This document shows, piece after piece, positions 2,665-55,412 of a DNA stretch of 64,000 nt. Made by a program: the position numbers and the translations under genes. Location of the stretch: IMG/VR virus record IMGVR_UViG_3300014565_000223; one strand, written 5' to 3'. Under the pieces are notes generated by a model that ran no database searches, was not told the origin of the DNA, and saw only the letters and a list, made by a program, of their open reading frames with translations. This stretch comes from a virus. The first letter of the stretch is position 1. The number at the start of each line of letters is the position of its first letter.

Positions 2665-2892
2665 ATGACGTATGAAGAAACACAAAAAATCAAACATTTA
2701 CGAAAAGTGACTTCTGTTATGGTTGAGGAATCATCAAATGGAATTGAATGTACTAAAAATAGATTTGGAAACAGAACTATGGATGGCTGTAAAAATGTAA
2801 CTTTTGAAAAGATTGAGTTATCGAAAATTGACAATGATATTCATCATATAAGAAAAGAATATTATGGTAGAAATCTATGGGTAGTGTTATGA
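2665..2892 (+). CDS. hypothetical protein (75 aa)
   Basis: AAAGGATG RBS. Confidence 0.4.
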   Translation: MTYEETQKIKHLRKVTSVMVEESSNGIECTKNRFGNRTMDGCKNVTFEKIELSKIDNDIHHIRKEYYGRNLWVVL

Positions 2893-2921
2893 GATTGAAT
2901 TGCTTTTAAGGAGGTAAAAGT

Positions 2922-3155
2922 ATGAACAAGTATTCTTTAAGTATTAAATGGAAATTTAATGAGGAATTTGAATCATGGAACATGATTATTATATCTGACG
3001 ATAGTAAAGAACATGTTACAGAAGTAATTAAAAATTATCAGAAAACAAACAATGTGGAGTTTGAATCACCAGTAGACCTTATGGATGCTATTTGTGATGA
3101 ATACGGATGGCAGTGGGAAGATTTTTATTATGATATCGAGATTGTTTCGGATTAA
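2922..3155 (+). CDS. hypothetical protein (77 aa)
   Basis: Strong AAGGAGGT RBS. Confidence 0.5.
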   Translation: MNKYSLSIKWKFNEEFESWNMIIISDDSKEHVTEVIKNYQKTNNVEFESPVDLMDAICDEYGWQWEDFYYDIEIVSD

Positions 3156-3166
3156 GAAAGAATGAG

Positions 3167-3430
3167 GTGTATGTTATGGAACAATTGCTTAAATATGTAG
3201 AAGAATTGAATACAAACACTCCGGATGGTCAAATTGTTGATGCTGACACTATTTTAAAAGATATAATGGACGAGCAGGATTTTGAAATATCTGGTATGGC
3301 TCAAGACATATTCAATATTTATCATAAAAGTAGTGACAAACAAGCGGTAAAAGAAATGTTCTTTGAATTTACTGGTATGGAATTTGATCAGTATTTGATG
3401 AAATGTAGCAGAGAAATTACACGGAAATAA
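3167..3430 (+). CDS. hypothetical protein (87 aa)
   Basis: GAATGAGGTG RBS. Confidence 0.45.
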   Translation: MYVMEQLLKYVEELNTNTPDGQIVDADTILKDIMDEQDFEISGMAQDIFNIYHKSSDKQAVKEMFFEFTGMEFDQYLMKCSREITRK

Positions 3431-3454
3431 GATTTTTGATTTATAGAGGGACTA

Positions 3455-3487
3455 AAAAGAGGTAGCTAAGAGCTGCCTCTTTTTATT
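3455..3487 (+). terminator. rho-independent terminator
   Basis: AAGAGGTAGCT / AGCTGCCTCTT stem (one G.U pair), 3-nt loop, then TTTTTATT. Confidence 0.7.
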
Positions 3488-3534
3488 GCAAAAATATAAT
3501 ACGATAACAATATAATAACATAGGAGCTGATGAA

Positions 3535-4198
3535 ATGAAAGCAGTAAGAGAAAAATTTTTAACAGTAGTAGAGGCTGAAAAGGTAACTGGAGTTCATTAT
3601 ACTGTAAATCATTCAGGGAAAATGGAAGGAATGCAGAGTTTATCAACTAGCTGCTTGTGTAATGAATATTGCAAGAATCGATCAAGCAATTCTGAACTGG
3701 TGTGTTCACATTGTTATGCACAAAGACAAATGAAAAGGTATAAAAATTTGAATGCATGCCTGGAGCGAAATACAGAGATTTTAACTAGCAGAATATTAAA
3801 GGAAGCAGAGATTCCAATGATCAATGCTTCCTTTTTTAGATTCGAGAGTTTTGGTGATTTAATTAATGTTACACAAGTTATTAATTACTTTAATATTTGT
3901 AAGAGAAACAAGCATGTACACTTTGCTTTATGGACAAAAAATCCTTGGATTATCGAAGAAGCGTTAGAGACCAGCGAAAAAAAAGCCAAGTAACTTACAG
4001 ATTATATATAGTAGCCCTTGTATTAATGATCAAGCAGATCCTGGATATGATTTTATTGATAAGATCTTTACAGTATATGATAAAGATTATATCAACGCGC
4101 GCGATGTAAATATTAATTGTGGAGCAAAGAGTTGCCTTACATGCCATAAATGTTATGTAAAAAGTAAAATAAAATATATCAATGAAAAACTGAAATAA
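3535..4198 (+). pseudogene. Gp37/Gp68 (DUF5131)-like Cys-rich protein, split by a +1 frameshift at an A8 run (3977-3984)
   Basis: N-terminal CxCx3C and CSHCYAQRQ resemble the Gp37/Gp68 family. The ORF stops at 3993, but the +1 frame continues uninterrupted to 4198 with more Cys pairs (CGAKSCLTCHKC). Confidence 0.45.
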
Positions 4199-4258
4199 AA
4201 TTTAATTATACATGATTAATAAAATAAAATATTGAAAACGTAAAAGAGGAGTGGTATA

Positions 4259-4831
4259 ATGAAAACAGCAATTGGTTATAAGCTTTTTAGGGTGTCTAAA
4301 AAATATCCGGGGAAATTATTTCCTCTGTATGTAAATGCAAATACGAATATTCCAATTGGAGAATGGATTAGTGCAGAACCAGGAGAAAGATTAGAAAATG
4401 GAAAAGTAAAAAGTAAACTTGGGCCATTGAGATATCGTCCTGGCTTCCATATTAATGATGTAGCTCCGTATGTCTCACATATAGGGCAAAAGGTAAATGG
4501 CAAGATTACTTATATGCGGCCGGATACTGTATGGGCTATGGTTGAATATTGTATTGATCATGATTACTGTGAAGAAGCAGAAGCAAATGGGATTTCTGAA
4601 TCTGGAAAATTTAATTATATAAAAGCTGACTTAGATTATATTCCAAAACATGGATTTTACCGGTATAAAACGTCTCCTGTAATGACTGGAGAATGGATCA
4701 ATGCCGGAGAAATGAAAGTAATCAAGATATTAAGCGATCAGGAAGTCAAAGAAATTTGTGATTCATGTGGATCAGATTATTTACCTCGAAAAGAAACAAT
4801 TAATTTATCAGAATTTGGATTTGCAGCATAA
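4259..4831 (+). CDS. hypothetical protein (190 aa)
   Basis: AAAGAGGAG RBS. The motif TTTAATTATACA lies upstream at 4201. Confidence 0.5.
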   Translation: MKTAIGYKLFRVSKKYPGKLFPLYVNANTNIPIGEWISAEPGERLENGKVKSKLGPLRYRPGFHINDVAPYVSHIGQKVNGKITYMRPDTVWAMVEYCIDHDYCEEAEANGISESGKFNYIKADLDYIPKHGFYRYKTSPVMTGEWINAGEMKVIKILSDQEVKEICDSCGSDYLPRKETINLSEFGFAA

Positions 4832-14655: not shown

Positions 14656-15150
14656 ATGAAATTTAAAGAAGCATTTGAAGAAATGAAATCTGGAATTCCA
14701 GTAAAACTTCCGTCATGGGCGGGTTATTGGTGGTGGGATGAAGAATCCCAGACAATCCTTATGTACACAAAAGATGGCGGCTGTCTGGATATAAGAGAAA
14801 CACAGAATGTGGAGTATACGCTTCAGAATATTCTTTCCGATGAGTGGGTTTATGCGGATAGTCGGAACTGTCCAATACTTGGTGGAGAAGCAACATTCTC
14901 ATTCGGAGAAGCGATTAAGTACCTGAAAAGAGGTATGAAAGTAGCGAGAAAAGGATGGAATGGAAAGAAACAGTACATTCAGCTTGCTACTGGGATTTCA
15001 TATAAGACTACTGACGACGAGATTGTAAATTGTGAGCATGATGCAATCGGAAATAAAGCCATCGCTTTTGTTGGAACATCTGGCGTACAGATGGGATGGC
15101 TTGCTACCCAGTCTGATATGCTCGCAGAAGACTGGATGTTTGTTAAATAA
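14656..15150 (+). CDS. DUF2829-like protein, tandem duplicated module
   Basis: MKFKEAFEEMKSG...WAGYWW and FGEAIKYLKRGMKVARKGWNGK both match the DUF2829 (Gp49-like) signature. Confidence 0.5.
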   Translation: MKFKEAFEEMKSGIPVKLPSWAGYWWWDEESQTILMYTKDGGCLDIRETQNVEYTLQNILSDEWVYADSRNCPILGGEATFSFGEAIKYLKRGMKVARKGWNGKKQYIQLATGISYKTTDDEIVNCEHDAIGNKAIAFVGTSGVQMGWLATQSDMLAEDWMFVK

Positions 15151-15177
15151 AATTATATGTATTGGAGGAATAAAAAC

Positions 15178-15558
15178 ATGGAACTTACAAAAATTTTTGA
15201 GGCGGCAACAAGATATAAATACAGATTCCCGTTCAAAGGAATGATTTCAGTAGAGGATTTATGGGATCTGAAATTGCAGGATTTGGATTCAGTATTTAAA
15301 CTGCTGAATAAAGAGAAAAAACAGAGTGATGAAGAAAGTCTGTTACAGGTTAAATCTGAAGCAGACCAGGCGCTGGAAAATAAAATTCAGATTGTAAAAT
15401 TCATCGTACAGGTAAAACAGGCAGAAACTGCAGAGAGATTAGCTGCAAAAGATAAGAAAGAGCGCAATCAGAAGATTATGAGAATCATTGAGAGAAAGCA
15501 GAACGAAGCTCTGGAAGGCAAGAGTCTTGAAGAACTGACAGCTATGTTAGAGGAGTAA
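15178..15558 (+). CDS. coiled-coil protein
   Basis: ATG 15178 with GGAGG RBS; charged heptad-like sequence. Confidence 0.5.
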   Translation: MELTKIFEAATRYKYRFPFKGMISVEDLWDLKLQDLDSVFKLLNKEKKQSDEESLLQVKSEADQALENKIQIVKFIVQVKQAETAERLAAKDKKERNQKIMRIIERKQNEALEGKSLEELTAMLEE

Positions 15559-15561
15559 TAT

Positions 15562-15735
15562 ATGGGAATACTCGGAGATATTGCGGCATTTCTGTTTATG
15601 GTGATTGTGATATTGATTTTACTACTAATTTTGTGTTTTATATGTGCTGCGGTATTAGCTGTAATTGTAGAAGCTATATACGAGGAAACCGGAAAATTAG
15701 AAGCTTTGTATAATATTTTACGTCATCTTCTTTAA
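15562..15735 (+). CDS. small single-pass membrane peptide (57 aa), C-terminal TGKLEALYNIL
   Basis: ATG 15562 directly after the upstream stop; hydrophobic core. Paralog of 15916..16107. Confidence 0.4.
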   Translation: MGILGDIAAFLFMVIVILILLLILCFICAAVLAVIVEAIYEETGKLEALYNILRHLL

Positions 15736-15739
15736 GGGA

Positions 15740-15919
15740 AATAAAATTCAGATTGTAAAATATATTGTTAAGTTTAAGCAGGAAGAGATTGAAGAGCGTC
15801 TTCAGGCAAAAGACAAAAAAGAATACAATCAGAAGCTGCTTGAACTGATCGAACGCAAACAGAATGAGGAGCTTGCCGGAAAGTCTATTGAGGAACTGCA
15901 GGCAATGCTTAAGGCATGA
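15740..15919 (+). pseudogene. start-less duplicated copy of the C-terminal ~60 aa of the 15178..15558 gene
   Basis: Reads NKIQIVKYIVKFKQEEIEERLQAKDKKEYNQKLLELIERKQNEELAGKSIEELQAMLKA, against ...NKIQIVKFIVQVKQAETAERLAAKDKKERNQKIMRIIERKQNEALEGKSLEELTAMLEE upstream. 23-nt identical core at 15378-15400 and 15739-15761. No in-frame ATG. Confidence 0.4.
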
Positions 15920-16107
15920 TGTTGATTACAGAATTGTTAAATATTACATTACTTACTGTGTACTTTGTATTGGTATCAATGGGAATATTAGTCTTTATAG
16001 TGTTTCTTACAACCTTTATGTACGCAGTAGTAATGATAATATATAGATTCACTGGAAAGCTGGGAAAGCTTTACAGAATACTAGAAGAAATAGAAAGGAA
16101 ATTTTAA
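15916..16107 (+). CDS. small membrane peptide (63 aa), C-terminal TGKLGKLYRIL
   Basis: ATGA overlap with the preceding frame; stop abuts the ATPase ATG. Paralog of 15562..15735. Confidence 0.45.
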   Translation: MMLITELLNITLLTVYFVLVSMGILVFIVFLTTFMYAVVMIIYRFTGKLGKLYRILEEIERKF

Positions 16108-18729
16108 ATGAAGAACGGCTTATCAAATGAACAGGTCGAAGAGAGTCGAAGATTACATGGAAGTAACAAGCTTCCTGAACCTGAATTGAAAAAATGGTAT
16201 CATTTTGCTAAGGAAGCATTAACTGAACCAATTACTATGATTCTAATAATAATTGCTTTATTCCAGTTAGTTTTAGGAGCTATGGGAGTAATGTCTCTTT
16301 CTGAACCTGTAATGATTATAGTAGTTTTAGCTATTGTTACTGAAATTGCTGTTAAGACAGGTCTAGGCATACAGAAATCTGCAGCAGAGTTAAGAGCAAA
16401 AACGGCAGTTAGATATTGTGATGTTGTCCGAGATGGAAGCGTACAGACAATTAATAAAGATGATCTGGTAGTAGGTGATTTAGTTCTATTGAGAACTGGA
16501 CAAGAGATTTTCGCAGATGGTTTTATTGTTGAAGGAGAAATTTCTGTTAATAATGCCGCTATCAATGGAGAGACAAAAGAATGTAGAAAAATTCCTAGTG
16601 CTAATTATAAACATGTTAAAACAACATCTACTGCTGCATATACGGATCAGTGTTCTCTCTTTGCAGGAACAGTTATTATGTCTGGTGAAGGAAAAATGAT
16701 TGTTACAGATGTTGGTGTTAATACAGTTAACGGTGATACTCTTGTCAAAATGCAGACTTTAGAGCCTCCTAAGACAGCTCTTGATATTGCTCTGGATCAT
16801 TTGTGTGATTTTATTTCAAAATGGGGAACAATTGCGGCAGCATTAGCATTTGTAATTATGACAATTGCAGGTATCTTAAATGCTGGAAGTTTAAGTCAGT
16901 ATTTCTCAGGAAACATTCTTGAAAATATTCAGAAAGTAGCACAGAATACCTCAAATGCATTAACAATTATTGTTGCGGCTGTACCGGAAGGTCTGCCACT
17001 CATTGTAAAACTTGTAACTAAACAGAATGTATCGACAATGGAAAAATTTAATATTCTTGCGAAGAATACTGGTAAAATTCCTGAATTGGCGTATGTTAAT
17101 TTAATTTGTACGGATAAGACAGGAACTCTCACAACAGGTGAAATGACTCCGGTAGCTATGATCAGTGGAGATTGTCATGATATTCTTAACGAGAAAAATG
17201 CGCTCAGACAAATGATTGATGTAAATATCTGTATGAATAATAGTGCAGTATTTGATTCCAATGGAAATATTACTGGTGGAAACTCTATTGACAGAGCAGT
17301 TCTTGGTATGATTACTCCAGAAGAAGTAAATGATATCAGCAATAGATTTAATATTAAAGAAAAACTTCCATTTAGCAGTAAAAATAAATATTCTTCTATT
17401 ACGTTAAACGATGAAGAAAATAATATTCTGAAATTTTATAAAGGTGCTCCAGAGAAAATCATTGCTAAATGTACACACATTGTTGATGCAGACGCACATT
17501 TAAGGGAATTTAAAGAAGAAGATAAAAATGAACTAAAATCATATATAAAAGGTATGACAGAAAAAGCAATGAGGTGTATTGCTTTAGCGGTATCAAATGA
17601 ATCAAATGATAGTGAATTGCCAGATATGGGATTGCTTGGTGTGATTGGTGTTGTGGATCCGGTTAGAAATGAGGTGCCAGAAGCTGTGAGTATAGCACAT
17701 AAAGCCGGTATACAAGTAATTGAAATCACCGGAGACTGCATGGAAACAGCAAAAGCAGTTGCAGCAGAAGCAGGTATTTATAAACCTGGAGATCTTGCAA
17801 TTACAAATGATGAATTTGAAGCAATAACAGATGAAAAAGCGAAAGAAATTATTCCGGATTTAAGAGTAATCTCCAGATGTTCACCAAATACAAAGCTTCG
17901 TCTTGTAACATTAGCACAAGAAATTGGAATGTCTGTTGCTATGACCGGTGACGGTGTAAATGATGCGCCTGCACTAAAGAAAGCAGATGTAGGCTTTGGA
18001 ATGCAGGATGGGTCTGATGTGGCAAAAGAAGCAGCAGATATTGTTTTGACAGACAATAATTTTGCAAGTGTGGTAAAGGCAGTCGAACTTGGTAGAACAT
18101 TTATGCATAACATTATGATGTTCCTTGAATTCCAGCTGCCTATCAATATTTCGTTGTTGATCTTAAGTATGGTATTTCCAATTATTTCTGGTGGCTCTGC
18201 TCTATTAGCAGCAGTTCAGATCCTTATTGTAAATATCATCATGGATTCACTTAACTCATTAAGCTTTGGTGGAGAACCGCCAAAAGAGGAATATATGAAT
18301 GAAGAACCTATCATGAAAGGATCCGGATTATTTATCCGTGGAGCGAAAGGGAGAATTGCATTAAGTTCAATTGTATTTATTGCTTTATTTGGTGTAATTA
18401 CATTTGGTCCAGTTGGAAATATGTTTGCAACAAAACTTTCGGCTATGACAGCGAGATTCGCTTTATTGTGTTTAATGGCAGTATTTAATGGATTCACTAT
18501 TAGAACAGATAGTATGAATCTTTTCAAAGGAATTAAAAATAACAAATTATTTGTGTATATCGCATTGGGTATTTTTGCAATGACTGTAGTTTTGTGTAAC
18601 TTTGTAGGAAATCTAGTACAGACAACTCCAATGGATGTTAAACAGTGGATTATAGTCTTAGTGACAGCATTTATGGTTGTGCCTGTAGATTGGATTAGAA
18701 AAGCAATTTGTAAGAAAGGAAGTAACTAA
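16108..18729 (+). CDS. P-type cation-transporting ATPase (type II, Ca2+-ATPase-like)
   Basis: DKTGTLT phosphorylation site, PEGLP in M4, TGDxxxTA, GDGVNDAPALKKADVG hinge. ~10 TM segments; 873 aa. Confidence 0.9.
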   Translation: MKNGLSNEQVEESRRLHGSNKLPEPELKKWYHFAKEALTEPITMILIIIALFQLVLGAMGVMSLSEPVMIIVVLAIVTEIAVKTGLGIQKSAAELRAKTAVRYCDVVRDGSVQTINKDDLVVGDLVLLRTGQEIFADGFIVEGEISVNNAAINGETKECRKIPSANYKHVKTTSTAAYTDQCSLFAGTVIMSGEGKMIVTDVGVNTVNGDTLVKMQTLEPPKTALDIALDHLCDFISKWGTIAAALAFVIMTIAGILNAGSLSQYFSGNILENIQKVAQNTSNALTIIVAAVPEGLPLIVKLVTKQNVSTMEKFNILAKNTGKIPELAYVNLICTDKTGTLTTGEMTPVAMISGDCHDILNEKNALRQMIDVNICMNNSAVFDSNGNITGGNSIDRAVLGMITPEEVNDISNRFNIKEKLPFSSKNKYSSITLNDEENNILKFYKGAPEKIIAKCTHIVDADAHLREFKEEDKNELKSYIKGMTEKAMRCIALAVSNESNDSELPDMGLLGVIGVVDPVRNEVPEAVSIAHKAGIQVIEITGDCMETAKAVAAEAGIYKPGDLAITNDEFEAITDEKAKEIIPDLRVISRCSPNTKLRLVTLAQEIGMSVAMTGDGVNDAPALKKADVGFGMQDGSDVAKEAADIVLTDNNFASVVKAVELGRTFMHNIMMFLEFQLPINISLLILSMVFPIISGGSALLAAVQILIVNIIMDSLNSLSFGGEPPKEEYMNEEPIMKGSGLFIRGAKGRIALSSIVFIALFGVITFGPVGNMFATKLSAMTARFALLCLMAVFNGFTIRTDSMNLFKGIKNNKLFVYIALGIFAMTVVLCNFVGNLVQTTPMDVKQWIIVLVTAFMVVPVDWIRKAICKKGSN

Positions 18730-18730
18730 A

Positions 18731-19498
18731 ATGGGATTTTTGGGAAAATTATTCGGAAAAAAAGATGAGGAAACAGCAGTAGAGTTATCTTCTGCTGTAA
18801 CTCAGCAACCTGTATATGAAGAAAAATTACAGACAATTGATATGTCTAAGCACAATGAAAATCTTGGCAAAGTACTTATTGATATGTCTAAGGGAAGCAA
18901 GATTGATATGACAAAACATACGGCTAGAGTAGCTCTTGCAATGGATTATTCAGGAAGTATGGATTGGCTGTATGATAATGGATCTGTACAGGAAACCATT
19001 TCTCGTTTGTTGCCTATTGCTCTAAGATTTGACGATAATGGAGAACTTGAGAGTTGGCTGTTCTCAAATGGAGCAGAGCGCTTAAAAGCTGCTAACGCTG
19101 ATAATTATAGTAGTTATGTTAAAAATGTTATGAAAAAAGCTCATATGTATATGGGTGGTACTAATTATGCTCCTGTATTGAAAGAAATGGTTACATATTA
19201 TAAAGATATCGAGCCAAGTGAGATTCCAGCATTTATCATCTTTATTACAGATGGTGAGAACAGTGATACTTTTGCCACCAATGCAGTTATTAAAGAGCTT
19301 TCAGAGTACAACATCTTCGTGCAGTTCATAGGAATTGGAGATGAAGATTTTGACTATTTAAAATCTCTTGATGGTATGAAAGGTAGAAAACATGACAACA
19401 CCGGTTTTACAGCAGTAAAAGACATGAATAAAATGTCTGATGAGCAGCTGTATACAGAGATTCTTCGTCAGTATAAAGATTGGCTCAATAAAAAATAA
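18731..19498 (+). CDS. von Willebrand factor A domain protein (TerY-like)
   Basis: MIDAS-like DYSGSM; sits beside a TerD-domain gene. Confidence 0.6.
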   Translation: MGFLGKLFGKKDEETAVELSSAVTQQPVYEEKLQTIDMSKHNENLGKVLIDMSKGSKIDMTKHTARVALAMDYSGSMDWLYDNGSVQETISRLLPIALRFDDNGELESWLFSNGAERLKAANADNYSSYVKNVMKKAHMYMGGTNYAPVLKEMVTYYKDIEPSEIPAFIIFITDGENSDTFATNAVIKELSEYNIFVQFIGIGDEDFDYLKSLDGMKGRKHDNTGFTAVKDMNKMSDEQLYTEILRQYKDWLNKK

Positions 19499-19557
19499 TT
19501 CTATACTGTAAATAATAAATTATATATAAATAACGTAAATTAAAGGAGATTAAGATT

Positions 19558-20196
19558 ATGGCAACAATTAATATGAGCAAAAAACAGAAAATCAGTATGA
19601 CAAAGGAAGATGGATCTGCAGTAAAGAATTTTTTTATTGGTGTGAACTGGGAGCAAAATAGATATGCCGGAGAAGCCGATATTGATTTTGACATCAATGG
19701 AATGCTTACTAATGGAGATCGGAAGGTGACATATCCGGGAGATTTGGTAAATTATAATACATATGGAGATGGATCTGCTTATCCGTGGATTGATTATTCC
19801 GGAGATAATCTCACTGGAAATGATTCTCAGGGCATGATGTTTAATGGAAAACATTACGATGAATATTTTATTGTCCACGCAGATCAGTTTCCGGAGAATA
19901 AAACAGACTTTACCATTTGTCTTACTATTTTTAGAGCGGTACAGCGCCTTCAGAATTTTGGTATGGTAAGTAATGCAACTATAATGATCTGTGATTATGA
20001 TAATCCAGACGGAGATAAGTACGAATATAATCTGTCTGAGAATGAGAATTTTGAAAATCTGAACGCTGTAGAGATGGGAAGGCTTTATAAATACGGAGAT
20101 GGATTTAAATTCCAGGCACTTGGATCAGGATATACCGGAGGAATGACAGAATTGTTTAAGAATTTCGGTCTTGACATTGATGAGGGAAGGGATTAA
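19558..20196 (+). CDS. TerD-domain protein
   Basis: ISMTKEDGSAVKNFFIGVNWE...DIDFDINGML matches the TerD/CAPAB signature (GLgWD...DLD). Confidence 0.6.
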   Translation: MATINMSKKQKISMTKEDGSAVKNFFIGVNWEQNRYAGEADIDFDINGMLTNGDRKVTYPGDLVNYNTYGDGSAYPWIDYSGDNLTGNDSQGMMFNGKHYDEYFIVHADQFPENKTDFTICLTIFRAVQRLQNFGMVSNATIMICDYDNPDGDKYEYNLSENENFENLNAVEMGRLYKYGDGFKFQALGSGYTGGMTELFKNFGLDIDEGRD

Positions 20197-20198
20197 TC

Positions 20199-20942
20199 AT
20201 GAAAATTACATTTGGAGCAGTATTATTAATTGCTATTATTGTTGCAGCGTTTTTCTTTTTCAGAAGTAAAACAGGGAAACGAGTAAAAACAAGAGCAACG
20301 GGTACAGCAACGGAGGCTATCATTAAAGATGCCTCCACCCCGGAAGGGGCAAAAGCTTATTATAACGAAGCTATTGATGCTAAAAAGGATCAGTATAATA
20401 AGGCAAATCAGATCTATACACAGATGCTTGGCAAGATCACTTCTTATGAGGAGCAGCTTCGAGCATTACAAAAAGAAAATATGCAGCTTAATTTAAACAT
20501 TAACGCTTGTATCGATAAAGGCGATGATGAAGGGGCTAAAGTATATTTGAAGAAACAGCAGGATGCAGAAGATAAGATTGCTGTTTTAAAAGATACACTT
20601 AAAGAACTTAGATCTAATGCAACCGCTCAAAAGGAAATGCTTGACAGTGCGCTTCAGGCGGTAAATGATCTTAAGTCTGAAAAGGATAAGGCAATTCTTA
20701 CTCTTGAAACGGCGCAGGTTACAAAATCCTTACAGGTTACTCCTGGCGCTTCAGACAAGGAAGAAGACAAAATGCTTGAAGTTGTTCGTGAAGGTATCAA
20801 AAAGCAAAAAGAAGCTGCAGACGGTACAAAGGCTGCATTTGATGCATCTGCAGATGTACAGCAGAAGCGCCTTGATAAGAAGATGAAAGACGAGGCCATT
20901 GATAAGAAACTGCAGGAGTTAAAAGCAAGGAAAGGAAAATAA
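20199..20942 (+). CDS. PspA/IM30-family protein with N-terminal TM helix
   Basis: N-terminal hydrophobic helix, then a long amphipathic coiled coil with PspA-like KGDDEGAKVYLKKQQDAEDKI. Confidence 0.55.
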   Translation: MKITFGAVLLIAIIVAAFFFFRSKTGKRVKTRATGTATEAIIKDASTPEGAKAYYNEAIDAKKDQYNKANQIYTQMLGKITSYEEQLRALQKENMQLNLNINACIDKGDDEGAKVYLKKQQDAEDKIAVLKDTLKELRSNATAQKEMLDSALQAVNDLKSEKDKAILTLETAQVTKSLQVTPGASDKEEDKMLEVVREGIKKQKEAADGTKAAFDASADVQQKRLDKKMKDEAIDKKLQELKARKGK

Positions 20943-20943
20943 A

Positions 20944-21036
20944 ATGGTCGCATTAAATATGGGAACATTTGTTGTATGCCTCGCGCTTGCCTTTCTGGCA
21001 GGTATTCTGGTTACAAAAATTAAATTAAAGAAATAA
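20944..21036 (+). CDS. 30-aa hydrophobic peptide (MVALNMGTFVVCLALAFLAGILVTKIKLKK)
   Basis: ATG 2 nt after the PspA-like stop; single TM. Not in track (<60 aa). Confidence 0.3.
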   Translation: MVALNMGTFVVCLALAFLAGILVTKIKLKK

Positions 21037-21048
21037 AGGAGAAAAATT

Positions 21049-21570
21049 ATGGGATTTACATTATTTGGAGAAAAATATAAATATGAAGTAGACAGTATTA
21101 ATATTGGGATTTTTTGTCCAGATGGGACATTATTAATAGTTTTAAAACTTAAAGATGGTACATATAAATCAATTGATGTTAATCTTGGAGCAGAAAAATA
21201 TAAGTCATTATGCAAAGAGAATAACATTACAAACAATGTGCCGGTTCTTGTTACACAAGAACATGTTAATAAATTAGATAAAGAAATAAAACCTAAGTAC
21301 AAATGGGGAGACTGGAAAGAAGGTTACACTTTTTTTATGGATCCATTTTCTCGTAGAGAAAAACTATTAGTATATAATGTTAGAACTAATGGTAAGAGAG
21401 TGCAGGTAGAATTCGACGGTGTAAAAGCTATGGCTTCTTGTAATATTGAAGCAGGAGATCAATTTGATTATAAGTTTGGTAGGGAACTGGCAGAGCGAAG
21501 ATTGATTGCGAAATTGATTGAGAAACGTGCAAATTCATATTATATAAGCAAAATCAACAAAACAAATTAA
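21049..21570 (+). CDS. hypothetical protein (173 aa)
   Basis: AAGGAGAAAAATTATG RBS. Confidence 0.5.
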   Translation: MGFTLFGEKYKYEVDSINIGIFCPDGTLLIVLKLKDGTYKSIDVNLGAEKYKSLCKENNITNNVPVLVTQEHVNKLDKEIKPKYKWGDWKEGYTFFMDPFSRREKLLVYNVRTNGKRVQVEFDGVKAMASCNIEAGDQFDYKFGRELAERRLIAKLIEKRANSYYISKINKTN

Positions 21571-21584: not shown

Positions 21585-21613
21585 TTGACAAACGAAACTT
21601 GATATGCTATACT
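21585..21613 (+). promoter_or_regulatory. sigma70-like promoter TTGACA-17-TATACT
   Basis: Consensus hexamers. Part of the repeat AAATTAAATTAACTTTGCATATTGACA, upstream of the tRNA. Confidence 0.6.
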
Positions 21614-21710
21614 AAATACATAGTCAAGGATGACAACAGCACAGAGGAGTGAAAGCTCCCTGTGCTAAATAAAAAGAAGAAAGAAATTTAATTATACAAA
21701 CAATGAATGT

Positions 21711-21795
21711 AGCGGTATGATGAAATTGGCTAGACATAATAGACTTTGACTCTATTGAGCAGTAGCTCGTGTGGGTTCGAATCCCACTACCGCCG
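21711..21795 (+). tRNA. tRNA, type II (long variable arm), anticodon UUG by manual fold; atypical
   Basis: T-arm GTGGG-TTCGAAT-CCCAC. Acceptor AGCGGTA/TACCGCC with an A1.C72 mismatch. 3-bp D-stem ATG/CAT. Anticodon stem ATAGA/TCTAT with loop CTTTGAC. Variable stem-loop GAGC-AGTA-GCTC. Confidence 0.6.
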
Positions 21796-21874
21796 TTTGG
21801 CAAGTATTTTATACAAATATACTCCAGCCGAATTGCAGAGAAATATAATTTAATTATACAAAAAGGAGATAAAA

Positions 21875-45425: not shown

Positions 45426-46406
45426 ATGGCAGAAATTACAATGAAATCAACAAAGGCAGAAATTATGGAAGCGTATAAGGCAGCAGTGGAGAAACTTGAT
45501 ACAAGAGACCGAATGATTGATGATCCTGCAAAAGAAGCAGCGAAGGCTAAAAAGGTAGAAGTTATCGAATCTGCAGATAAAACAGCTAAAGAAGATATTT
45601 TTAATCCGGAGATTATCAAGAAGTACAATGATCTTACAGAAGCAATTACAATGAAGCAGATTGAACTGGATGATCTTTATGGAATTGAAGCAAAAGCCAA
45701 TGCTATGGCAGCTATGATCAATGCTTATAAAGAGAAAAATGAAGAGTTAAAAGAGGCTCAGGCAGCGAAAGAAGCAGAGATTGAAGCTGAATTAGGAGAG
45801 AAAAAAGACACACTGAGAGCTGAAATTGAGTCGCTGAAGCAGCAGAAACAGGAAATTATTGATTCTATCAATGCAGAAGCTAAAGCAAGAGAAAATGAAA
45901 TTAAATTAACTCGTAGTCGTGAGGAAGATGAATACACCTATAATCTGAAACGCAGTCGTAAAGCTGAAAATGATAAATGGGAAGATGAGAAAGCTGCTAG
46001 AGAAAAGATTTTGGAACTTAGAGAAACAGCGGCTCTTGAGAAAGAAACAGAACTGAATGCAAAAGCTGATCATGTAAAGGAATTAGAAGCAAAAGTAGAA
46101 GAGATTCCGACATTGATTGCAGCAGCAACAGAGGAAGGTATTAAAAAAGGTAAAGCCGATGCTGATAAATCAAATGCTTTTGAAGTTAGAGCACTTAAGA
46201 AAGATGCTGAATATCAGAAACAGCTTCTGGAAGATAAAAATGAAAGACTTGCAGAGGATCTGGCTAATGCGAGAGCAGAAAAAGTTGAATTACAGCAGAA
46301 ACTTGACGATGCATATGCTCAGATGAGAGAACTTGCTGCTAAGACTGTAGAATCTACCGGTGGAGTTAAAATTCTGAACGGACAGACTCAGCAGAATAAT
46401 AAATGA
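45426..46406 (+). CDS. long coiled-coil protein (326 aa), Lys/Glu/Ala-rich
   Basis: GAAAAAGGAGAACTAAAAACATG RBS; heptad character throughout. Confidence 0.5.
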   Translation: MAEITMKSTKAEIMEAYKAAVEKLDTRDRMIDDPAKEAAKAKKVEVIESADKTAKEDIFNPEIIKKYNDLTEAITMKQIELDDLYGIEAKANAMAAMINAYKEKNEELKEAQAAKEAEIEAELGEKKDTLRAEIESLKQQKQEIIDSINAEAKARENEIKLTRSREEDEYTYNLKRSRKAENDKWEDEKAAREKILELRETAALEKETELNAKADHVKELEAKVEEIPTLIAAATEEGIKKGKADADKSNAFEVRALKKDAEYQKQLLEDKNERLAEDLANARAEKVELQQKLDDAYAQMRELAAKTVESTGGVKILNGQTQQNNK

Positions 46407-46461: not shown

Positions 46462-46623
46462 ATGAATCCGGTATTTATATTTTTGGTATTAGTTGGAGCA
46501 GTAATTTTATGGTTTCTATTATCTGCACTGTTTTATCCATTTGGGAGATTCTTACATAGAATCTGGAAAGATGCAGCAGATGAAATAAATAGAGAAGATC
46601 AAAACAAGGAGAAAAAAGATTAA
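46462..46623 (+). CDS. small membrane protein (53 aa), NfeD-like partner of the SPFH gene?
   Basis: AAGGAGAATTATATG RBS; TAATG overlap with the SPFH gene. Confidence 0.4.
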   Translation: MNPVFIFLVLVGAVILWFLLSALFYPFGRFLHRIWKDAADEINREDQNKEKKD

Positions 46624-47585
46624 TGAAAAAAGGATTTTTAGGTAGTATTGGATTAGCAGTGATTATTGTAGCAGGATTAATTTGTGTAGCAAAGTGTACG
46701 GTAAGAGTACCTGCCGGTTACGTGGCGGTACAATATGAGATGAATGGAGGAATTTCTGATGATACGCTTACTCAGGGATGGCATTTAGTTTCTCCAACGA
46801 TCAAAACATCTTTATATTCAGTGGGTATCGAGCAGTCATATCTTACATCTGAAGATAAGGGTGATTCTCCAAAGGATGAAAGCTTTAAAACTCCTACTGC
46901 AGATGGTAAGCAACTTCTTGTAGATCTTGAGTTTTCATATAAATTTGATCAGGAACATGTTGCTGATGTATTTACAAGATTTAAAGGTCAGTCCGGAGAA
47001 AGTGTAAAAAATACTTTCATTAAACCTAAAATGAAAGCATGGACACAGGAAGTGACTGCTAAGTATCCAGTAACAGATGTATTTGGTGATAAACGTCAAG
47101 AACTGAACGAGGCTCTTGACACATATCTGAAAAAGAAATTTGAGCCATATGGAATTATCATTGACACTGTAAACTTTACTTCAATTTCTACAGATGATGA
47201 AACTCAAGCAGCTATTCAGAAGAAAGTAAATGCACAGCAGGAACTGGAACTTGCAAATATTGAAGCCAAGACTGCAAAAGTACAGGCAGATAAAGATAAA
47301 GAAGTTGCTCTTATTGCAGCTGAACAGGATAAAGAGAAAGCTGCTATTGAAGCTGAACAGGCAAAAATCACTGCGGAAGGTAAGGCGGAAGCTACAAAAA
47401 TTAAAGCGGATGCTGAAGCAGAAGCAAATAAAAAGATCGCTGAGTCACTTACTCCAGAACTTATTGAGAAACAGAAGATTGATAAGTGGAATGGTGATGT
47501 GCCGAAGGTACAAGGTGGAAATGCTGCAACAATTGTTGATGCAGGTGATTTAACATCAGGAACAGCAAGTGTAAAAGGAGAATAA
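46623..47585 (+). CDS. SPFH / band-7 (prohibitin/flotillin-like) domain protein
   Basis: N-terminal TM, then an SPFH-like core and a long Ala/Glu/Lys coiled-coil tail (EAEQAKITAEGKAEA), typical of flotillin/HflK-like proteins. Confidence 0.6.
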   Translation: MKKGFLGSIGLAVIIVAGLICVAKCTVRVPAGYVAVQYEMNGGISDDTLTQGWHLVSPTIKTSLYSVGIEQSYLTSEDKGDSPKDESFKTPTADGKQLLVDLEFSYKFDQEHVADVFTRFKGQSGESVKNTFIKPKMKAWTQEVTAKYPVTDVFGDKRQELNEALDTYLKKKFEPYGIIIDTVNFTSISTDDETQAAIQKKVNAQQELELANIEAKTAKVQADKDKEVALIAAEQDKEKAAIEAEQAKITAEGKAEATKIKADAEAEANKKIAESLTPELIEKQKIDKWNGDVPKVQGGNAATIVDAGDLTSGTASVKGE

Positions 47586-47586
47586 T

Positions 47587-47760
47587 ATGAGGGGAATGTT
47601 ACTTATTATTATGTCATTATTGGCATTAGCTTTCAGTTGGATCGTAACATGTGGAATTATAAAATTAATCACATTATGTTTCGGGGTCGCTTTCAGCTGG
47701 TTGATTGCTACAGGAATTTGGCTTGTAATCTTATTACTGAAATCAGTATTTGGGAAATAA
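47587..47760 (+). CDS. small 2-TM membrane peptide (57 aa)
   Basis: ATG 2 nt after the SPFH stop. Internal duplication (LAFSW / VAFSW). Confidence 0.35.
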   Translation: MRGMLLIIMSLLALAFSWIVTCGIIKLITLCFGVAFSWLIATGIWLVILLLKSVFGK

Positions 47761-49835: not shown

Positions 49836-50192
49836 ATGCCGGAACGTAACAGAGGGTATTTGAGAAAGCAAAGACTACGAAATATTGAACGTAGAAAAAA
49901 ATTAATAAGTCAACGAGAACTTATGTATCATGGATATAAAACTTTGAACGATCCTGATTTTAAAGAGGGGATGTTACATAAAGGACACAGTGGACGACTT
50001 GGCATGGGTGGAACTGCAGTAAAAACTAATACTCGTAAAGGACATGCTTCATATCGACATAAAGGTGCTTATGGTCAAGCTGATAATTATTCAAGACATG
50101 ATAAGCAGCAAGTTGAAGATGGAGCACAGCAAATTAAAGAATGGGAGAACGAAGATGGAAGAAGAGAAAAAGAAGGTTCTGATTGTAGTTGA
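49836..50192 (+). CDS. small basic protein (118 aa)
   Basis: Arg/Lys-rich N-terminus. Confidence 0.4.
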   Translation: MPERNRGYLRKQRLRNIERRKKLISQRELMYHGYKTLNDPDFKEGMLHKGHSGRLGMGGTAVKTNTRKGHASYRHKGAYGQADNYSRHDKQQVEDGAQQIKEWENEDGRREKEGSDCS

Positions 50193-50706
50193 TGTACAGA
50201 ATGATTTTGTAACCGGTTCACTTGGTACGCCGGAAGCCCAAGCTATTATTCCGAATGTAAAAGAGAAATTTGATGAATATAAGAATAATAAGAACTATGT
50301 AATTCTTACAAAGGATACTCATCATTCAGATTACGCAGATACTTCAGAGGGCAGAAAACTTCCTGAACATTGTATGTATGGTACTAAAGGTTGGGAAATT
50401 GTTGATGAACTTGATTATAAAAATCTCGATAGTTTTATGGTATGTTGTAAATCTACTTTTGGATTTGATGACTGGAATTGGGAAGAAATATTTAATACTA
50501 CAGATGGTTCTTTATTAGATATTGAAATTATTGGCATATGCACAGATATCTGTGTTATTACGAACGCTCTTTTGATTAAAACTTATTATCCAGAGGCAAA
50601 AATCACAGTTGATGCGTCATGTTGTGCCGGAACTACACCGGAGAAGCATAAAGCAGCACTTGATGTCATGGAAAGCTGTCAAATTAATGTGATAAATAAA
50701 AATTAA
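50155..50706 (+). CDS. isochorismatase-family hydrolase, nicotinamidase (PncA)-like
   Basis: LIVVDVQNDF N-terminal signature; catalytic Cys context IGICTDICV. ATG 50155. Confidence 0.65.
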   Translation: MEEEKKKVLIVVDVQNDFVTGSLGTPEAQAIIPNVKEKFDEYKNNKNYVILTKDTHHSDYADTSEGRKLPEHCMYGTKGWEIVDELDYKNLDSFMVCCKSTFGFDDWNWEEIFNTTDGSLLDIEIIGICTDICVITNALLIKTYYPEAKITVDASCCAGTTPEKHKAALDVMESCQINVINKN

Positions 50707-50714
50707 ATTAAACA

Positions 50715-51347
50715 ATGGAGGAAATCAAAATGATGAACAATTTTATGAATGGAATGTTTGGAAAAATCGGTAGTGGAATGTGCAAGTTATCCATGAGCGG
50801 TAATATTGCGGTAAAAACTTCTAATGGATATAAGAGTTACAATGTTAAATCCGGCAAGCTCACAAACTGTGGCAATTTCGTGTTTCCTGGAGTAGATGAA
50901 AACTTTTTCTTCGTCATTCCTACAAATAAGGTAACTAAAGGAGATATTATCCTTGTAAATGGCAAACCTAAGTGCGTCATCGAAGCAGATAAAACAAAGA
51001 TCACTGTAATCAATTATGAAGATTCTACAGTTGAAACAATTCTGCCGGAGCGCCATGTATTTATGGGAAATACTTATTTCTATGGAAAAATTGTATCTAT
51101 GTTCGGAAGTAATCTTGGAAAAGATAAGAATAGTGCAAATAAAATCTTTAAATATATGATGATGTCCCAGATGATGAATGGAGCGGCCGGTACCGGAACT
51201 GGAACAGACAGTAATCCAATGAGTGCTATGATGCCATTTATGATGATGAATGGTGGTATTGGTGATGTATTTGACGGTATGTTTGATTTTAGCATGGATG
51301 ATACAGACACAGAAGATAGTGAAGATGATTTAGAGGAGGATGAATAA
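50715..51347 (+). CDS. Met/Gly-rich protein with acidic C-terminal tail
   Basis: ATGGAGGAAATCAAAATG RBS. Confidence 0.45.
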   Translation: MEEIKMMNNFMNGMFGKIGSGMCKLSMSGNIAVKTSNGYKSYNVKSGKLTNCGNFVFPGVDENFFFVIPTNKVTKGDIILVNGKPKCVIEADKTKITVINYEDSTVETILPERHVFMGNTYFYGKIVSMFGSNLGKDKNSANKIFKYMMMSQMMNGAAGTGTGTDSNPMSAMMPFMMMNGGIGDVFDGMFDFSMDDTDTEDSEDDLEEDE

Positions 51348-51349
51348 TT

Positions 51350-52249
51350 ATGGGAAGCGGAAGTTGGGATACTAGAAGTTTTGTAAGTTATTCAACATCA
51401 AAAGGATATGGCACTGATTCACGAGGAGTAGTTACAGGAAGTTATTCTAATCAGGAAATGTTTAAAGCAAAAAATATTGATGCAGCACTCGATCCTAAAG
51501 GTGTTATTAGAGAATGTTGTGATAATGAAGAGCATCCGAATACTTTACCAGTCATTTTAGCTTTGGATGTCACAGGATCTATGGGACAGACCGCAGTAGA
51601 AATTGCAAAAAGACTTAATGAAATCATGACAAAATTATATGGTCAGATTAAAGATGTAGAATTTATGATTATGGGTATTGGTGATTTAGCATATGATAAT
51701 TATCCAATTCAGGCATCACAGTTTGAATCCGATATTAGAATTGCGGAGCAGCTTGATAAAATCTATTTTGAATTTGGCGGCGGAGGTAATTGTTTCGAGT
51801 CATATACTGCTGCTTGGTATTTTGGATCTCGTCATACAAAACTTGATTGTTGGAATAGGGGTAAAAAAGGCGTAATTATCACAATTGGGGACGAACGTCT
51901 TAATCCGTACTTACCAGTATCAGGACGACGCTCTGGATTAGGAATTACAACTGGCGATACGCTTCAGGCCGATGTAGAAACTAAAGATTTATATATGGAA
52001 ACATCTGAGAAATTTGATATTTATCACATTAATGTAAATCATCGTGATGGATATGACCAGAGAGGAATAGTTGAGTCTTTTTCAGAGTATCTTGATGATA
52101 ATCATTTTAGGACCATTAATCGTCTTGATGATATTGCAGATGAAATTGTAAAGATTGTAGTTGCGGCTGCAGAAAATAATGAACCTGTAGTAGTCTCATC
52201 CACTGTAATTTCTGCAGAGACAGATGAATCAGGAGCTATTGTTTGGTAA
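51350..52249 (+). CDS. von Willebrand factor A domain protein
   Basis: MIDAS motif LDVTGSMG. Confidence 0.6.
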   Translation: MGSGSWDTRSFVSYSTSKGYGTDSRGVVTGSYSNQEMFKAKNIDAALDPKGVIRECCDNEEHPNTLPVILALDVTGSMGQTAVEIAKRLNEIMTKLYGQIKDVEFMIMGIGDLAYDNYPIQASQFESDIRIAEQLDKIYFEFGGGGNCFESYTAAWYFGSRHTKLDCWNRGKKGVIITIGDERLNPYLPVSGRRSGLGITTGDTLQADVETKDLYMETSEKFDIYHINVNHRDGYDQRGIVESFSEYLDDNHFRTINRLDDIADEIVKIVVAAAENNEPVVVSSTVISAETDESGAIVW

Positions 52250-52261
52250 GGAGAATAACTT

Positions 52262-53371
52262 ATGAAAGATATAAAAATTGTCATCGGAGCAAACTTTGGT
52301 GACGAGGGCAAGGGTAAATTAACAGATTATTATACTAAAAATGCAGATAACTGTATCGTTGTGTGTTCAAATGGCGGTGCTCAAAGAGGACACACAGTAT
52401 TAAAATCAGACGGAACCCGGCATGTCTTTCATCATTTCGGCTCTGGAACATTAAACGGAGCAGATACTTATTTACCGGAGGATTTTATTTTAAATCCTCT
52501 GGTATTTAGGGAAGAATGGGAAGAGTTGAAGAAATTAGGATGGGAACCTTATGTGTACGTTCATGAACAATGTATGATTACGAATCCTCTTGATATGATG
52601 GCAAATCAAATTATTGAGCGAAGTCGCGGTAATAATAAACACGGAAGTTGTGGAATGGGTATTTATAATACCATTCAACGATATAAAAAGCATATTGATT
52701 CATATTCATTATCATGGACATATTATATGAACATGTTCAAAAACATGGGAATTACGTTATCTGAGCAGGAAGAAGAATTATTTCATCCCGTAAAAAATCC
52801 TGGGCTTCGAGACCATTACAATGAAGATCTTGATTTTATGATGTCTCATGTACATGTTGTAAATAATATTCAATTACTACTTAATGGATACGACACCATT
52901 GTGTTTGAAAATGGTCAGGGGCTTCTTTTGGATCAAAATAATACTGAATATTACCCACATCTTACACCATCAAATACTGGTATTAAGAATCCTGCCAGAA
53001 TTATAAAGGCTATAAGATGGACTGATGAAATTAATATAGAAGCTTGTTATGTGACACGTACATATATGACGCGGCATGGAGCCGGTGCGTTCCCAACTGA
53101 ATGTAATAAGGAAGAGATTAATCCGGACATCAAAGATTTAACCAATGTTCCAAATCCACATCAGGATACTTTGAGATATGGGAAGTTAAATGTGGAAGAA
53201 TTACATGAAAGATGTCAAGCAGACATAAAAACCTCTGGAATCCCATGTCGGAAGACATTGGCTATGACTCATATGAATGAATATTGCGAGTCTAATATAT
53301 CTCTTTATGAAATACATAAAATATTCAAAGATAACTGGAAATTAAAATTGTTTGAACGTGAGGAGAACTAA
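52262..53371 (+). CDS. adenylosuccinate synthetase-like protein, short form (PurA/PurZ family)
   Basis: N-terminal P-loop GANFGDEGKGKLTDYY matches the PurA signature GxQWGDEGKGK. At 369 aa it is shorter than bacterial PurA (~430), like archaeal PurA / phage PurZ. Confidence 0.6.
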   Translation: MKDIKIVIGANFGDEGKGKLTDYYTKNADNCIVVCSNGGAQRGHTVLKSDGTRHVFHHFGSGTLNGADTYLPEDFILNPLVFREEWEELKKLGWEPYVYVHEQCMITNPLDMMANQIIERSRGNNKHGSCGMGIYNTIQRYKKHIDSYSLSWTYYMNMFKNMGITLSEQEEELFHPVKNPGLRDHYNEDLDFMMSHVHVVNNIQLLLNGYDTIVFENGQGLLLDQNNTEYYPHLTPSNTGIKNPARIIKAIRWTDEINIEACYVTRTYMTRHGAGAFPTECNKEEINPDIKDLTNVPNPHQDTLRYGKLNVEELHERCQADIKTSGIPCRKTLAMTHMNEYCESNISLYEIHKIFKDNWKLKLFEREEN

Positions 53372-55403: not shown

Positions 55404-55412
55404 GGAGGAGTT

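Follow-up and report, generated by a model that had tools for sequence, protein, structure and literature searches.

The viral DNA analysed here (64,000 nucleotides of IMG/VR record IMGVR_UViG_3300014565_000223; hereafter the window, meaning this whole stretch) carries, from 12.5 to 23 kb, a series of genes on the + strand. Among them lies a compact cassette, all of it on that strand, in which the gene for a predicted calcium pump is joined to genes for Ter-type and PspA-type proteins. The pump is an 873-amino-acid (aa) P-type ATPase of the PMCA type (P2B), assigned as Ca2+-translocating from TIGR01517 and five Pfam domains (16108-18729). A single nucleotide (nt) separates its gene from that of a 255-aa von Willebrand factor A (vWA) protein resembling the C-terminal part of TerF and the copines (18731-19498; PF10138, an intact metal-ion-dependent adhesion site, MIDAS, and an N-terminal amphipathic segment). 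There follow a divergent TerD-domain protein of 212 aa (19558-20196; PF02342 and the solved structure 2KXT) and a 247-aa membrane-anchored PspA/IM30 protein of the ESCRT-III superfamily (20199-20942), the latter assigned from a family profile and an AlphaFold2 (AF2) fold with a transmembrane (TM) helix, a basic linker and helices alpha1-alpha5. The cassette ends with a single-TM micropeptide of 30 aa (20944-21036), recognised by its hydrophobicity and by conserved homologues next to PspA.

A preliminary description of this DNA had proposed that the genes at 18731-21036 form one membrane-directed module. The four open reading frames (ORFs) concerned are indeed present on the + strand, each preceded by a ribosome-binding site of the GGAG/AGGA type. 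Distances between the cassette genes are 1-2 nt, save for 59 nt between vWA and TerD; in that spacer the ribosome-binding site is the only conserved part, the rest being variable and holding no conserved promoter. A scan for promoters and terminators gave no usable operon boundary within the cassette, where promoter-like counts equalled the shuffled expectation. Its sole strong promoter site lies downstream of the cassette and ahead of a tRNA, at 21585-21613; with TTGACA-17-TATACT and an extended TG, it outranks every other sigma-70-like promoter in the region.

Conservation of the cassette

We compared the locus with contigs from IMG/VR, Logan, ENA and GTDB (numbered L below), many of them gut-derived and 100-260 kb long. 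In every related lineage examined, down to protein identities of 33-47%, the ATPase gene is syntenic with Ter and PspA genes, and the order ATPase, TerD, PspA is retained in six or more separate lineages whose flanking genes differ. As the flanks vary between lineages, it is the block that is kept, not its neighbourhood. Two architectural variants occur. Variant A, found in the window, consists of ATPase, vWA, TerD and TM-anchored PspA, with or without the peptide. It extends to identities of 46% for the ATPase, 50% for TerD and 44% for PspA (the last in L038); in the window's relatives the ranges are 46-72%, 50-100% and 58-100%, respectively. In variant B, the ATPase is followed by three canonical TerD genes and a TM-anchored PspA with 33-38% identity, again with or without the peptide. 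Its carriers are a Logan metagenome contig (L032) and contigs of metagenome-assembled genomes labelled Eubacteriales, Clostridiales and Treponema (L044-46).

What directly follows the ATPase gene is vWA in variant A and the TerD genes otherwise, with no exception among the lineages examined; the ATPase is the most constant partner and the largest gene of the block. The preliminary description had recognised a cation pump here but left it outside the module. The first point holds, the pump passing the TIGR01517 cut-off, and the second does not, the gene being syntenic in all lineages examined. Because the ATPase is so constant and passes a calcium-pump cut-off, the unifying theme would be Ca2+ and not generic membrane stress. 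The idea of a single membrane-directed module is itself strengthened by the conserved synteny.

Ratios of nonsynonymous to synonymous substitution (dN/dS) are 0.06-0.32 for the four large genes, with dS saturated (>1.2), and 0.30-0.44 for the micropeptide; by this measure all genes of the cassette are under purifying selection. The cassette is also very common in human-gut metagenomes, where several homologue clusters have hundreds to more than 1000 members and one exact PspA sequence occurs on at least 1000 contigs.

Three human-fecal contigs named 'Bacteriophage sp.' (L003, L055, L056) carry non-phage-like ORFs and were used only as probable cellular comparators. Adjacency of ATPase and TerD is found in two of them as well, the unannotated L003 and L055, which from their gene content are probably cellular. 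L003 holds a Ter operon with TelA immediately 5' of the TerD genes, L055 and L056 have high-GC-looking ORFs, and in the short contigs L003 and L055 we found no PspA-like gene.

Predicted products of the cassette genes

The product of 16108-18729 has all five P2-type Pfam domains and matches TIGR01517, an equivalog model for PMCA-type calcium pumps, at 3.9e-153 and 511.7 bits, narrowly passing the cut-off of 507.05. Conserved in 11 phage copies of the ATPase are DKTGT, KGAPE, TGD and GDGxND, together with PEGL in M4 and NxxMD in M6 (an N...D pair); the A-domain TGES motif deviates, reading NGE(T/S) in all 11. By the cut-off, the catalytic motifs and the Ca2+-site residues, we assign the protein as a PMCA-type Ca2+ pump, its ion specificity being predicted.

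The vWA protein matches the vWA-TerF-like family PF10138 at 7e-59 (199.8 bits, cut-off 29.4), with secondary Pfam matches to Copine (1.1e-10) and VWA (2e-8). It had been called TerY-like; the vWA domain stands, but the TerF C-terminal model is the best by about 50 orders of magnitude in E-value and displaces TerY. Proteins of the TerY type are reportedly associated, as a rule, with phosphatase or kinase genes, and no PP2C or kinase family was matched among the ORFs scanned between 12556 and 22993. Seven alleles show no variation in the MIDAS residues DxSxS (DYSGS), T (GGTNYAP) and D (ITDGEN). At the N-terminus, the segment MG(F/L)(L/F)GKLFGKK, which we infer would form an amphipathic helix, is conserved and precedes a variable linker.

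For the neighbouring TerD protein the preliminary call is borne out, both by PF02342 (4.3e-33, 114.8 bits, cut-off 25.3) and by full-length matches to solved TerD structures (Klebsiella 2KXT, 1.3e-19; 3IBZ, 1.5e-18). TerD binds Ca2+ (KP-TerD, PDB 2KXT), and the motifs responsible are said to be DxD and GDN(R/L)TG(E/A)GDGDDE. The TerD of the window keeps the DxD (D-F-D) and S-G-D-N-L-T-G (GDNLTG), and in all variant-A alleles the acidic GxGDGDDE loop is replaced by the 8-aa-longer NDSQGMMFNGKHYDE. Judged by this remodelled loop, variant-A TerD is a distinct subtype. The three-TerD cassettes of variant B keep the canonical acidic loop, and among their TerDs is a 'DCDAS' paralogue like one in the Ter operon of fecal contig L003.

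In copines a Ca2+-binding C2 beta-sandwich lies ahead of the vWA domain, as TerD does in TerF; the vWA protein and the adjacent TerD of the cassette amount to a split TerF with the order reversed. One metagenomic gene call (P0279, 438 aa) joins vWA and TerD in one protein, its vWA part being 99% identical; the alternatives are an artefact of read-through and a natural re-fusion with vWA ahead of TerD.

The 247-aa protein had been described as PspA/IM30-like. Taken alone, it matches PF04012 (PspA_IM30) at 1.6e-5 and 25.1 bits, under the gathering cut-off of 33.9, so that Pfam does not sustain the call for the single protein, but the family profile and the AF2 fold do. An exhaustive HMMER search gave a family of ~245-aa proteins (155 representatives at 50% clustering), most of which align from the N-terminal hydrophobic segment on. 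PF04012 is matched by 44 of 68 diverse members at E<=0.01, with a best value of 1.1e-10. When a profile of these 68 was searched against the PDB, the four best matches were Vipp1/PspA (2.9e-7 to 5.6e-7) in a consistent register, with query residues 47-205 aligned to Vipp1 27-186. The diverse alignment was required for this, the same search with close homologues only giving haemagglutinin coiled-coil noise and Vipp1 at E ~0.7.

The AF2 model of the protein has a predicted local distance difference test score (pLDDT) of 73, rising above 90 over residues 60-160, the hairpin, and places helices at 5-22, 48-106, 110-179, 189-224 and 231-244. In a Foldseek search, the top 13 PDB matches of this model are all Vipp1/PspA (E 5e-4, probability 1.00), and archaeal CdvB and CHMP2A/3 rank after them; against the hairpin fragments 4whe and 6zvs the TM-score is 0.76-0.78, with a root-mean-square deviation of 1.8-3.2 A. 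Given the family matches to PF04012, the profile matches in the PDB and the Foldseek matches, we accept the protein as a predicted member of the PspA/ESCRT-III superfamily in which one defining feature, helix alpha0, is changed. Homology to PspA begins at about profile position 27-28, and in place of the amphipathic alpha0 there is a hydrophobic TM segment (residues 1-22/26; Kyte-Doolittle 2.85 over 1-26) followed by a basic linker. TelA, tried as a relative of this protein, was rejected at an hhalign probability of 0.4%.

The TM helix, noted earlier as unusual, is present; it is rare, yet already known in bacteria, where Ravi et al. 2024 (PMC11237479) mention TM-bearing PspA/Snf7 homologues whose operons also hold ABC-transporter and PBPB-OmpA genes. 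Distant relatives of the phage protein (25-30% identity; L047-L049, L036-L037) occur in the order BPD_transp_1 permease-like gene, 175-186-aa coiled-coil protein, TM-anchored PspA, and in L049 an OmpA-domain protein and a 650-aa Band_7 protein come next; with its permease and OmpA, this context matches the one in PMC11237479. The ~180-aa genes 5' of these distant relatives were tried as divergent TerD and rejected, giving coiled-coil noise only.

The 30-aa peptide is strongly hydrophobic, with one TM helix and an AGGA ribosome-binding site. Its start lies close behind the PspA stop (20942 -> 20944) and the two genes are translationally coupled. Peptides with the N-terminus M(I/V)(V/A)LN(I/V/M)G(V/T)F are encoded no more than a few bases behind the PspA gene, both in the window group and in L038/39, L042, L043, L044 and L046, and this N-terminus is kept even where PspA identity is only 34-44%. 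Since it recurs at this place in diverged lineages, the peptide is, to judge from its sequence, a real and conserved gene, in line with the preliminary description of a hydrophobic peptide next to PspA. Pfam gave no credible match for it, and PspB, PspC and LiaI are not matched either.

Allele reassortment and natural knock-outs

In comparison with genomes otherwise 95-100% identical to the window, identity falls sharply at gene boundaries. It drops to 63-82% across 16200-19500 (ATPase and vWA) in L017 and L006, to 61-77% across 19500-21000 (TerD and PspA) in L028, and in the ATPase N-domain alone (17100-17900) in L010. All the reassorting alleles are under purifying selection. We read these as old, functional alleles that reassort as two sub-blocks, ATPase with vWA and TerD with PspA. 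The pattern suggests two functional pairs, pump plus vWA and TerD plus PspA, at a locus under balancing or conflict-type selection.

The cassette is also found broken. In L022 the ATPase gene is interrupted by an insertion sequence (2705-4297), whose transposase ORF of 474 aa runs on the minus strand, and in L027 (at ~7830) a deletion runs from the ATPase C-terminus to the TerD N-terminus, joining ATPase residue ~245 to the TerD C-terminus. PspA is kept in L027 despite the loss of most of the ATPase, the vWA gene and most of TerD. As these natural knock-outs exist, the cassette is accessory and non-essential.

The phage and its hosts

The window covers the arm of a large phage that serves replication and nucleotide metabolism, with strong PHROG matches to a DnaE-type polymerase, helicases, a primase, NrdD, an NAD-ligase and NAMPT. 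The polymerase is closest to those of Clostridioides phages LIBA6276/LIBA2945 (45%) and then to those of large (143-169 kb) Bacillus phages (37%), which we take to be SPbeta-like. Relatives occur in isolate assemblies. A 499-kb scaffold of Ruminococcus sp. AM36-2AA (L040, QTYB01000001.1, 328-345 kb) holds the cassette with a 99.6% identical PspA, and a 1.96-Mb contig of Mediterraneibacter sp. NSJ-55 (L054, JACOPF010000001.1, 856-877 kb) holds homologues of window 51350-53371; homologous proteins are also named from Blautia faecis. Because it is SPbeta-like and has relatives inside large contigs of isolate assemblies, the element is probably a very large temperate SPbeta-like phage of Lachnospiraceae. 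The cassette hosts are gut Clostridia (Lachnospiraceae/Oscillospiraceae). A megablast of 16108-21570 against 50,697 phage records gave no match, hence no cultured close relative.

Two neighbouring sets of genes recall counter-defence. One kilobase 5' of the cassette, 14656-15150 encodes a 164-aa Tad2-like protein (Thoeris anti-defence 2; PF11195, 1.4e-23), which is absent in some close relatives (L018, L028). The second, at 50044-57354, is an NAD and nucleotide-salvage cluster with an isochorismatase/nicotinamidase-like gene (50044), a phosphoribosyl-pyrophosphate-synthetase-like gene (53372) and NAMPT (55413; phrog_448, 5e-170), and resembles phage NAD+-reconstitution counter-defence pathways.

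Neighbouring genes and the SPFH locus

Directly upstream of the pump, and peripheral to the core cassette, lies the gene for a 63-aa small membrane protein (15916-16107, + strand; hydrophobic residues 1-46), whose stop is 1 nt ahead of the ATPase ATG. The protein is 90-100% conserved in the close relatives L016-18, L028 and L040, and no homologue is present 5' of the ATPase in the distant lineages; it is a candidate pump partner. It is a paralogue of a 57-aa TM protein at 15562-15735, both ending in TGKLxxLYxIL. The region 15157-16107 is a tandem duplication, in which the gene at 15157 and the 57-aa TM protein are followed by a start-less remnant of the C-terminus of the former (15736-15915), and the stop of this remnant overlaps the start of the 63-aa paralogue. 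In other lineages a DUF2828/DUF7788 protein, weakly vWA-like (VWA_2, 9e-4), occurs directly 5' of the ATPase (L032, 1260-2864; L033) or 1.4 kb 5' of it (L038, 944-2488) and is a candidate for another vWA-type partner. On the other side of the cassette, 21710-21796 encodes a tRNA-Gln(UUG) found by ARAGORN, which at 87 nt is unusually long for a Gln tRNA (Rfam tRNA, 49 bits).

Other membrane-related genes lie farther away. The SPFH/band-7 gene at 46623 is as previously described (Band_7, 1.2e-24) and is tightly coupled to 53-aa and 57-aa TM ORFs. The claim that this trio (46462-47760) is an NfeD-SPFH arrangement fails, as neither flanking ORF has a credible Pfam match, NfeD included, at E<=1. 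We rejected NfeD for them; at 53-57 aa they appear too short for its oligonucleotide-binding-fold domain (PF01957). The SPFH locus is 26 kb off, and no firm evidence ties it to the cassette. Directly 5' of the trio, window 45426-46406 encodes a 326-aa coiled-coil protein, a homologue of which (324 aa; L045, 9071-10045) follows PspA in L045, which hints weakly at a relation between the two membrane loci.

A second vWA protein had been proposed at 51350. This 299-aa protein (51350-52249) has no Pfam vWA match at E<=1 and no PDB match by sequence, but the likeness holds at the level of fold: its AF2 model (pLDDT 67) matches the SpaC vWA, the integrin alphaM I-domain, collagen VI and vWF A3 at 1e-4 to 2e-3. 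The protein has a DxTGS MIDAS-like motif (DVTGS), and one NCBI homologue is named 'VWA domain-containing protein'. A short adenylosuccinate-synthetase-like gene always stands behind it (51350-53371; also L054, 10001-12092), matching PF00709 at 132 bits and the PurZ model at 44.7 bits (cut-off 300). The PADLOC defence models gave no match for the cassette genes, the SPFH protein, the 51350 protein, an AAA protein or a 688-aa protein, and NCBIfam gave none for the vWA, TerD, PspA or SPFH proteins.

Possible function of the cassette

We propose that the cassette is a Ca2+-linked membrane module by which an infected or lysogenic cell would stay energised and impermeable on a breach of its membrane, and give this reading a probability of about one half. 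What we observe is the gene content, the family assignments, the conserved linkage, the purifying selection and the dispensability; every product is membrane-integral or plausibly membrane-proximal. The physical interactions, the Ca2+ dependence and the biological target are what we infer. The PMCA-type pump would export Ca2+ and so set or reset its level in the cytoplasm or near the membrane. The TerD beta-sandwich and the copine-like vWA protein with its MIDAS, the split TerF, would act beneath the membrane as a Ca2+- or metal-responsive sensor or scaffold, tethered by the N-terminal amphipathic helix of the vWA protein. PspA, LiaH and Vipp1 seal and stabilise membranes, and a polymer of the TM-anchored PspA with the 30-aa TM peptide could be the effector that stabilises or reseals the bilayer in a like manner. 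Breaches might come from superinfecting phages, membrane-targeting abortive-infection effectors, bacteriocins or the phage's own entry and exit. A probably temperate phage could use the cassette in the lysogen, and roles there (exclusion or host protection, for example) are no less likely than those in long infection, lysis timing or resistance to abortive infection suggested previously.

Several observations weigh against this proposal. Both the interactions within the cassette and the Ca2+ dependence are guesses, and variant-A TerD, with its altered acidic loop, may not bind Ca2+. The PspA-like protein alone stays under the Pfam cut-off, and coiled coils are prone to spurious matches (the search with the 68-member profile gives tropomyosin at 1.8e-4). 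No Ter genes or ATPase are found among the called neighbours of the more distant TM-anchored PspA relatives. The free reassortment of ATPase and vWA against TerD and PspA opposes tight co-adaptation of the two halves, the natural knock-outs make the cassette dispensable, and no cassette gene matched a PADLOC defence model. In the Jug phages, moreover, the ATPase and terD-pspA form separate operons (PMC12880540).

A bolder form of the proposal, which we regard as doubtful, is that the cassette is a Ca2+-gated phage membrane-repair machine, a viral or prokaryotic counterpart of eukaryotic Ca2+-triggered ESCRT-III wound repair. By this analogy a breach would admit Ca2+, which TerD and the vWA protein would sense at the inner leaflet; they would then trigger or position polymerisation of the TM-anchored ESCRT-III homologue with the micropeptide, and the PMCA-type pump would afterwards clear the Ca2+. 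If this were true, TerD, whose 'tellurite resistance' function has long been obscure, would be a Ca2+ sensor for PspA. We know of no bacterial PspA for which Ca2+ dependence has been shown.

The same genes might instead make up an abbreviated Ter stress or defence system with which a prophage excludes superinfecting phages or mobile elements. TerD and the vWA protein would form a sub-membrane barrier, PspA would block DNA entry or puncture, and the pump would adjust the ion conditions of injection; the parts are shared with the Ca2+-linked module and the purpose differs, being conflict and not maintenance. Such exclusion was proposed by Iyer et al. 2021 (PMC7824862) for the TerD, TerC, TerF and TelA of jumbo phages. 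It would suit a probably temperate phage, a dispensable cassette and the counter-defence genes nearby (Tad2-like at 14656, and NAMPT), and diverged alleles that reassort within otherwise 95-100% identical genomes are typical of conflict loci. However, the low dN/dS carries no signal of positive selection, PADLOC gave no match, and an exclusion phenotype is known for neither TerD nor PspA. The cassette also lacks TerB, TerC, TelA and the Ter-type phosphoribosyltransferases (the rest of the window was not exhaustively scanned for TerB or TerC), and other phages do have TerC. On balance we hold this explanation possible, if on the unlikely side.

Bacterial PspA is induced by membrane-protein overload, and PspA and the peptide could merely aid the insertion or tolerance of an over-expressed 10-TM pump. 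The cassette would then serve a calcium take-over only, in which the pump, with TerD and the vWA protein as buffers or regulators, lowers host cytoplasmic Ca2+ for phage replication. That the ATPase is the largest and most constant cassette gene fits such a role, and manipulation of Ca2+ is the hypothesis put forward in PMC12880540. We consider it quite unlikely: TerD and PspA move as a unit independently of the ATPase allele, the terD and pspA-like operon of the Jug phages is separate from the ATPase, and L027 still has PspA with the vWA gene and most of both the ATPase and TerD gone.

There may also be no functional unit at all, the genes being independently useful captures from hosts that lie side by side through shared ancestry and the compactness of phage genomes. 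Unrelated genes are tightly packed in such genomes, a single capture event may underlie all examined lineages, and the sub-blocks recombine independently. We nevertheless find this improbable, since the order is kept at 33-47% protein identity with dS saturated (>1.2) and both flanks replaced, the ATPase/TerD/PspA logic is common to both architectural variants, TerD adjoins the ATPase in non-phage-like contigs, and TerD adjoins PspA in Bacteroides Jug phages. A lysis-timing device, with the TM-anchored PspA and the peptide as antiholin-like regulators and Ca2+ export modulating lysis, is the least credible explanation. Lysis cassettes do typically include small TM peptides and membrane-active proteins, but this dispensable cassette sits among replication and nucleotide-metabolism genes and no endolysin or holin family was found among the flanking ORFs scanned in the 64-kb window.

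Comparison with known systems

The components of the cassette and some of their pairings are known, and we found no report of a linked pump/TerD/PspA cassette in the searchable literature. Among the systems close to it are the Ter clusters (terZABCDEF of IncHI2 plasmids and Klebsiella; yceCDEFGH of B. subtilis), with which it shares one or more TerD proteins and a TerF-type vWA protein and, in variant B, the multiplicity of TerD in three genes. It differs from them in that PspA, which is unrelated to TelA, adjoins TerD and in that a Ca2+-ATPase is integral. Among phages, Ter genes occur in jumbo phages (PMC7824862) and Herelleviridae, and LysYB1 and YungSlug have the order TerD-TerD-TerC. TerD proteins are widespread in bacteria and phages.

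With TerF and the eukaryotic copines (C2-C2-vWA), the cassette shares the vWA match, an adjacent TerD gene and an intact MIDAS. The pair is split in two genes with vWA first, however; the vWA protein has its own N-terminal amphipathic segment, and the TerD partner a remodelled Ca2+ loop.

Likeness to PspA, LiaH and Vipp1 lies in the helical-hairpin fold, in the profile homology over alpha1-alpha5 and in a small TM protein alongside (PspB/PspC, LiaI). In contrast to the Psp (PspABC) and Lia (LiaIH) systems, the phage protein has a TM helix and basic linker for alpha0 and no PspF or LiaRS regulators. From the operons of TM-bearing PspA/Snf7 proteins the cassette differs in having no ABC-transporter or OmpA genes and in being phage-borne and linked to Ter and calcium genes; the main text of that context survey contains no occurrence of TerD, vWA, P-type or calcium (PMC11237479).

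In eukaryotes, Ca2+-triggered ESCRT-III repair of the plasma membrane (ALG-2, annexins, sorcin; PMC7618577) likewise brings Ca2+ sensors, an ESCRT-III polymer and a PMCA pump together. The parallel is one of analogy only: the putative sensors here, TerD and vWA, share no fold with EF-hand or annexin proteins, and no Vps4-like ATPase is in the cassette. PspA and Vipp1 have only recently been recognised as ESCRT-III proteins, and for their recruitment to damaged membrane the cassette offers a testable hypothesis, namely that Ca2+ is the damage signal and TerD the adaptor. With relatives present in cultured Lachnospiraceae assemblies, it can be tested genetically.

A phage precedent is that of the Jug phages (Sci Adv 2026, PMC12880540), in which calcium-translocating P-type ATPases were reported as new to phages. 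The pump was also found in 81 other huge and four smaller gut phages, with Bacteroidaceae- or Bacillota-like ATPases, and transcription of the Jug Ca-ATPase in the human gut is high. Immediately 5' of this ATPase, and co-transcribed with it, is a small gene that resembles in position the 63-aa gene described here, and Jug terD adjoins a pspA-like gene with which it is transcribed as an operon. That paper does not connect the pump with TerD/PspA and makes no mention of a vWA protein, a TM anchor or a micropeptide. The Jug phages are 360-402 kb long and have Bacteroides/Phocaeicola hosts, whereas here the cassette is contiguous and lies in an SPbeta-like phage of Clostridia; it extends the 2026 report by showing linkage partners of the phage Ca2+-ATPase in Bacillota phages.

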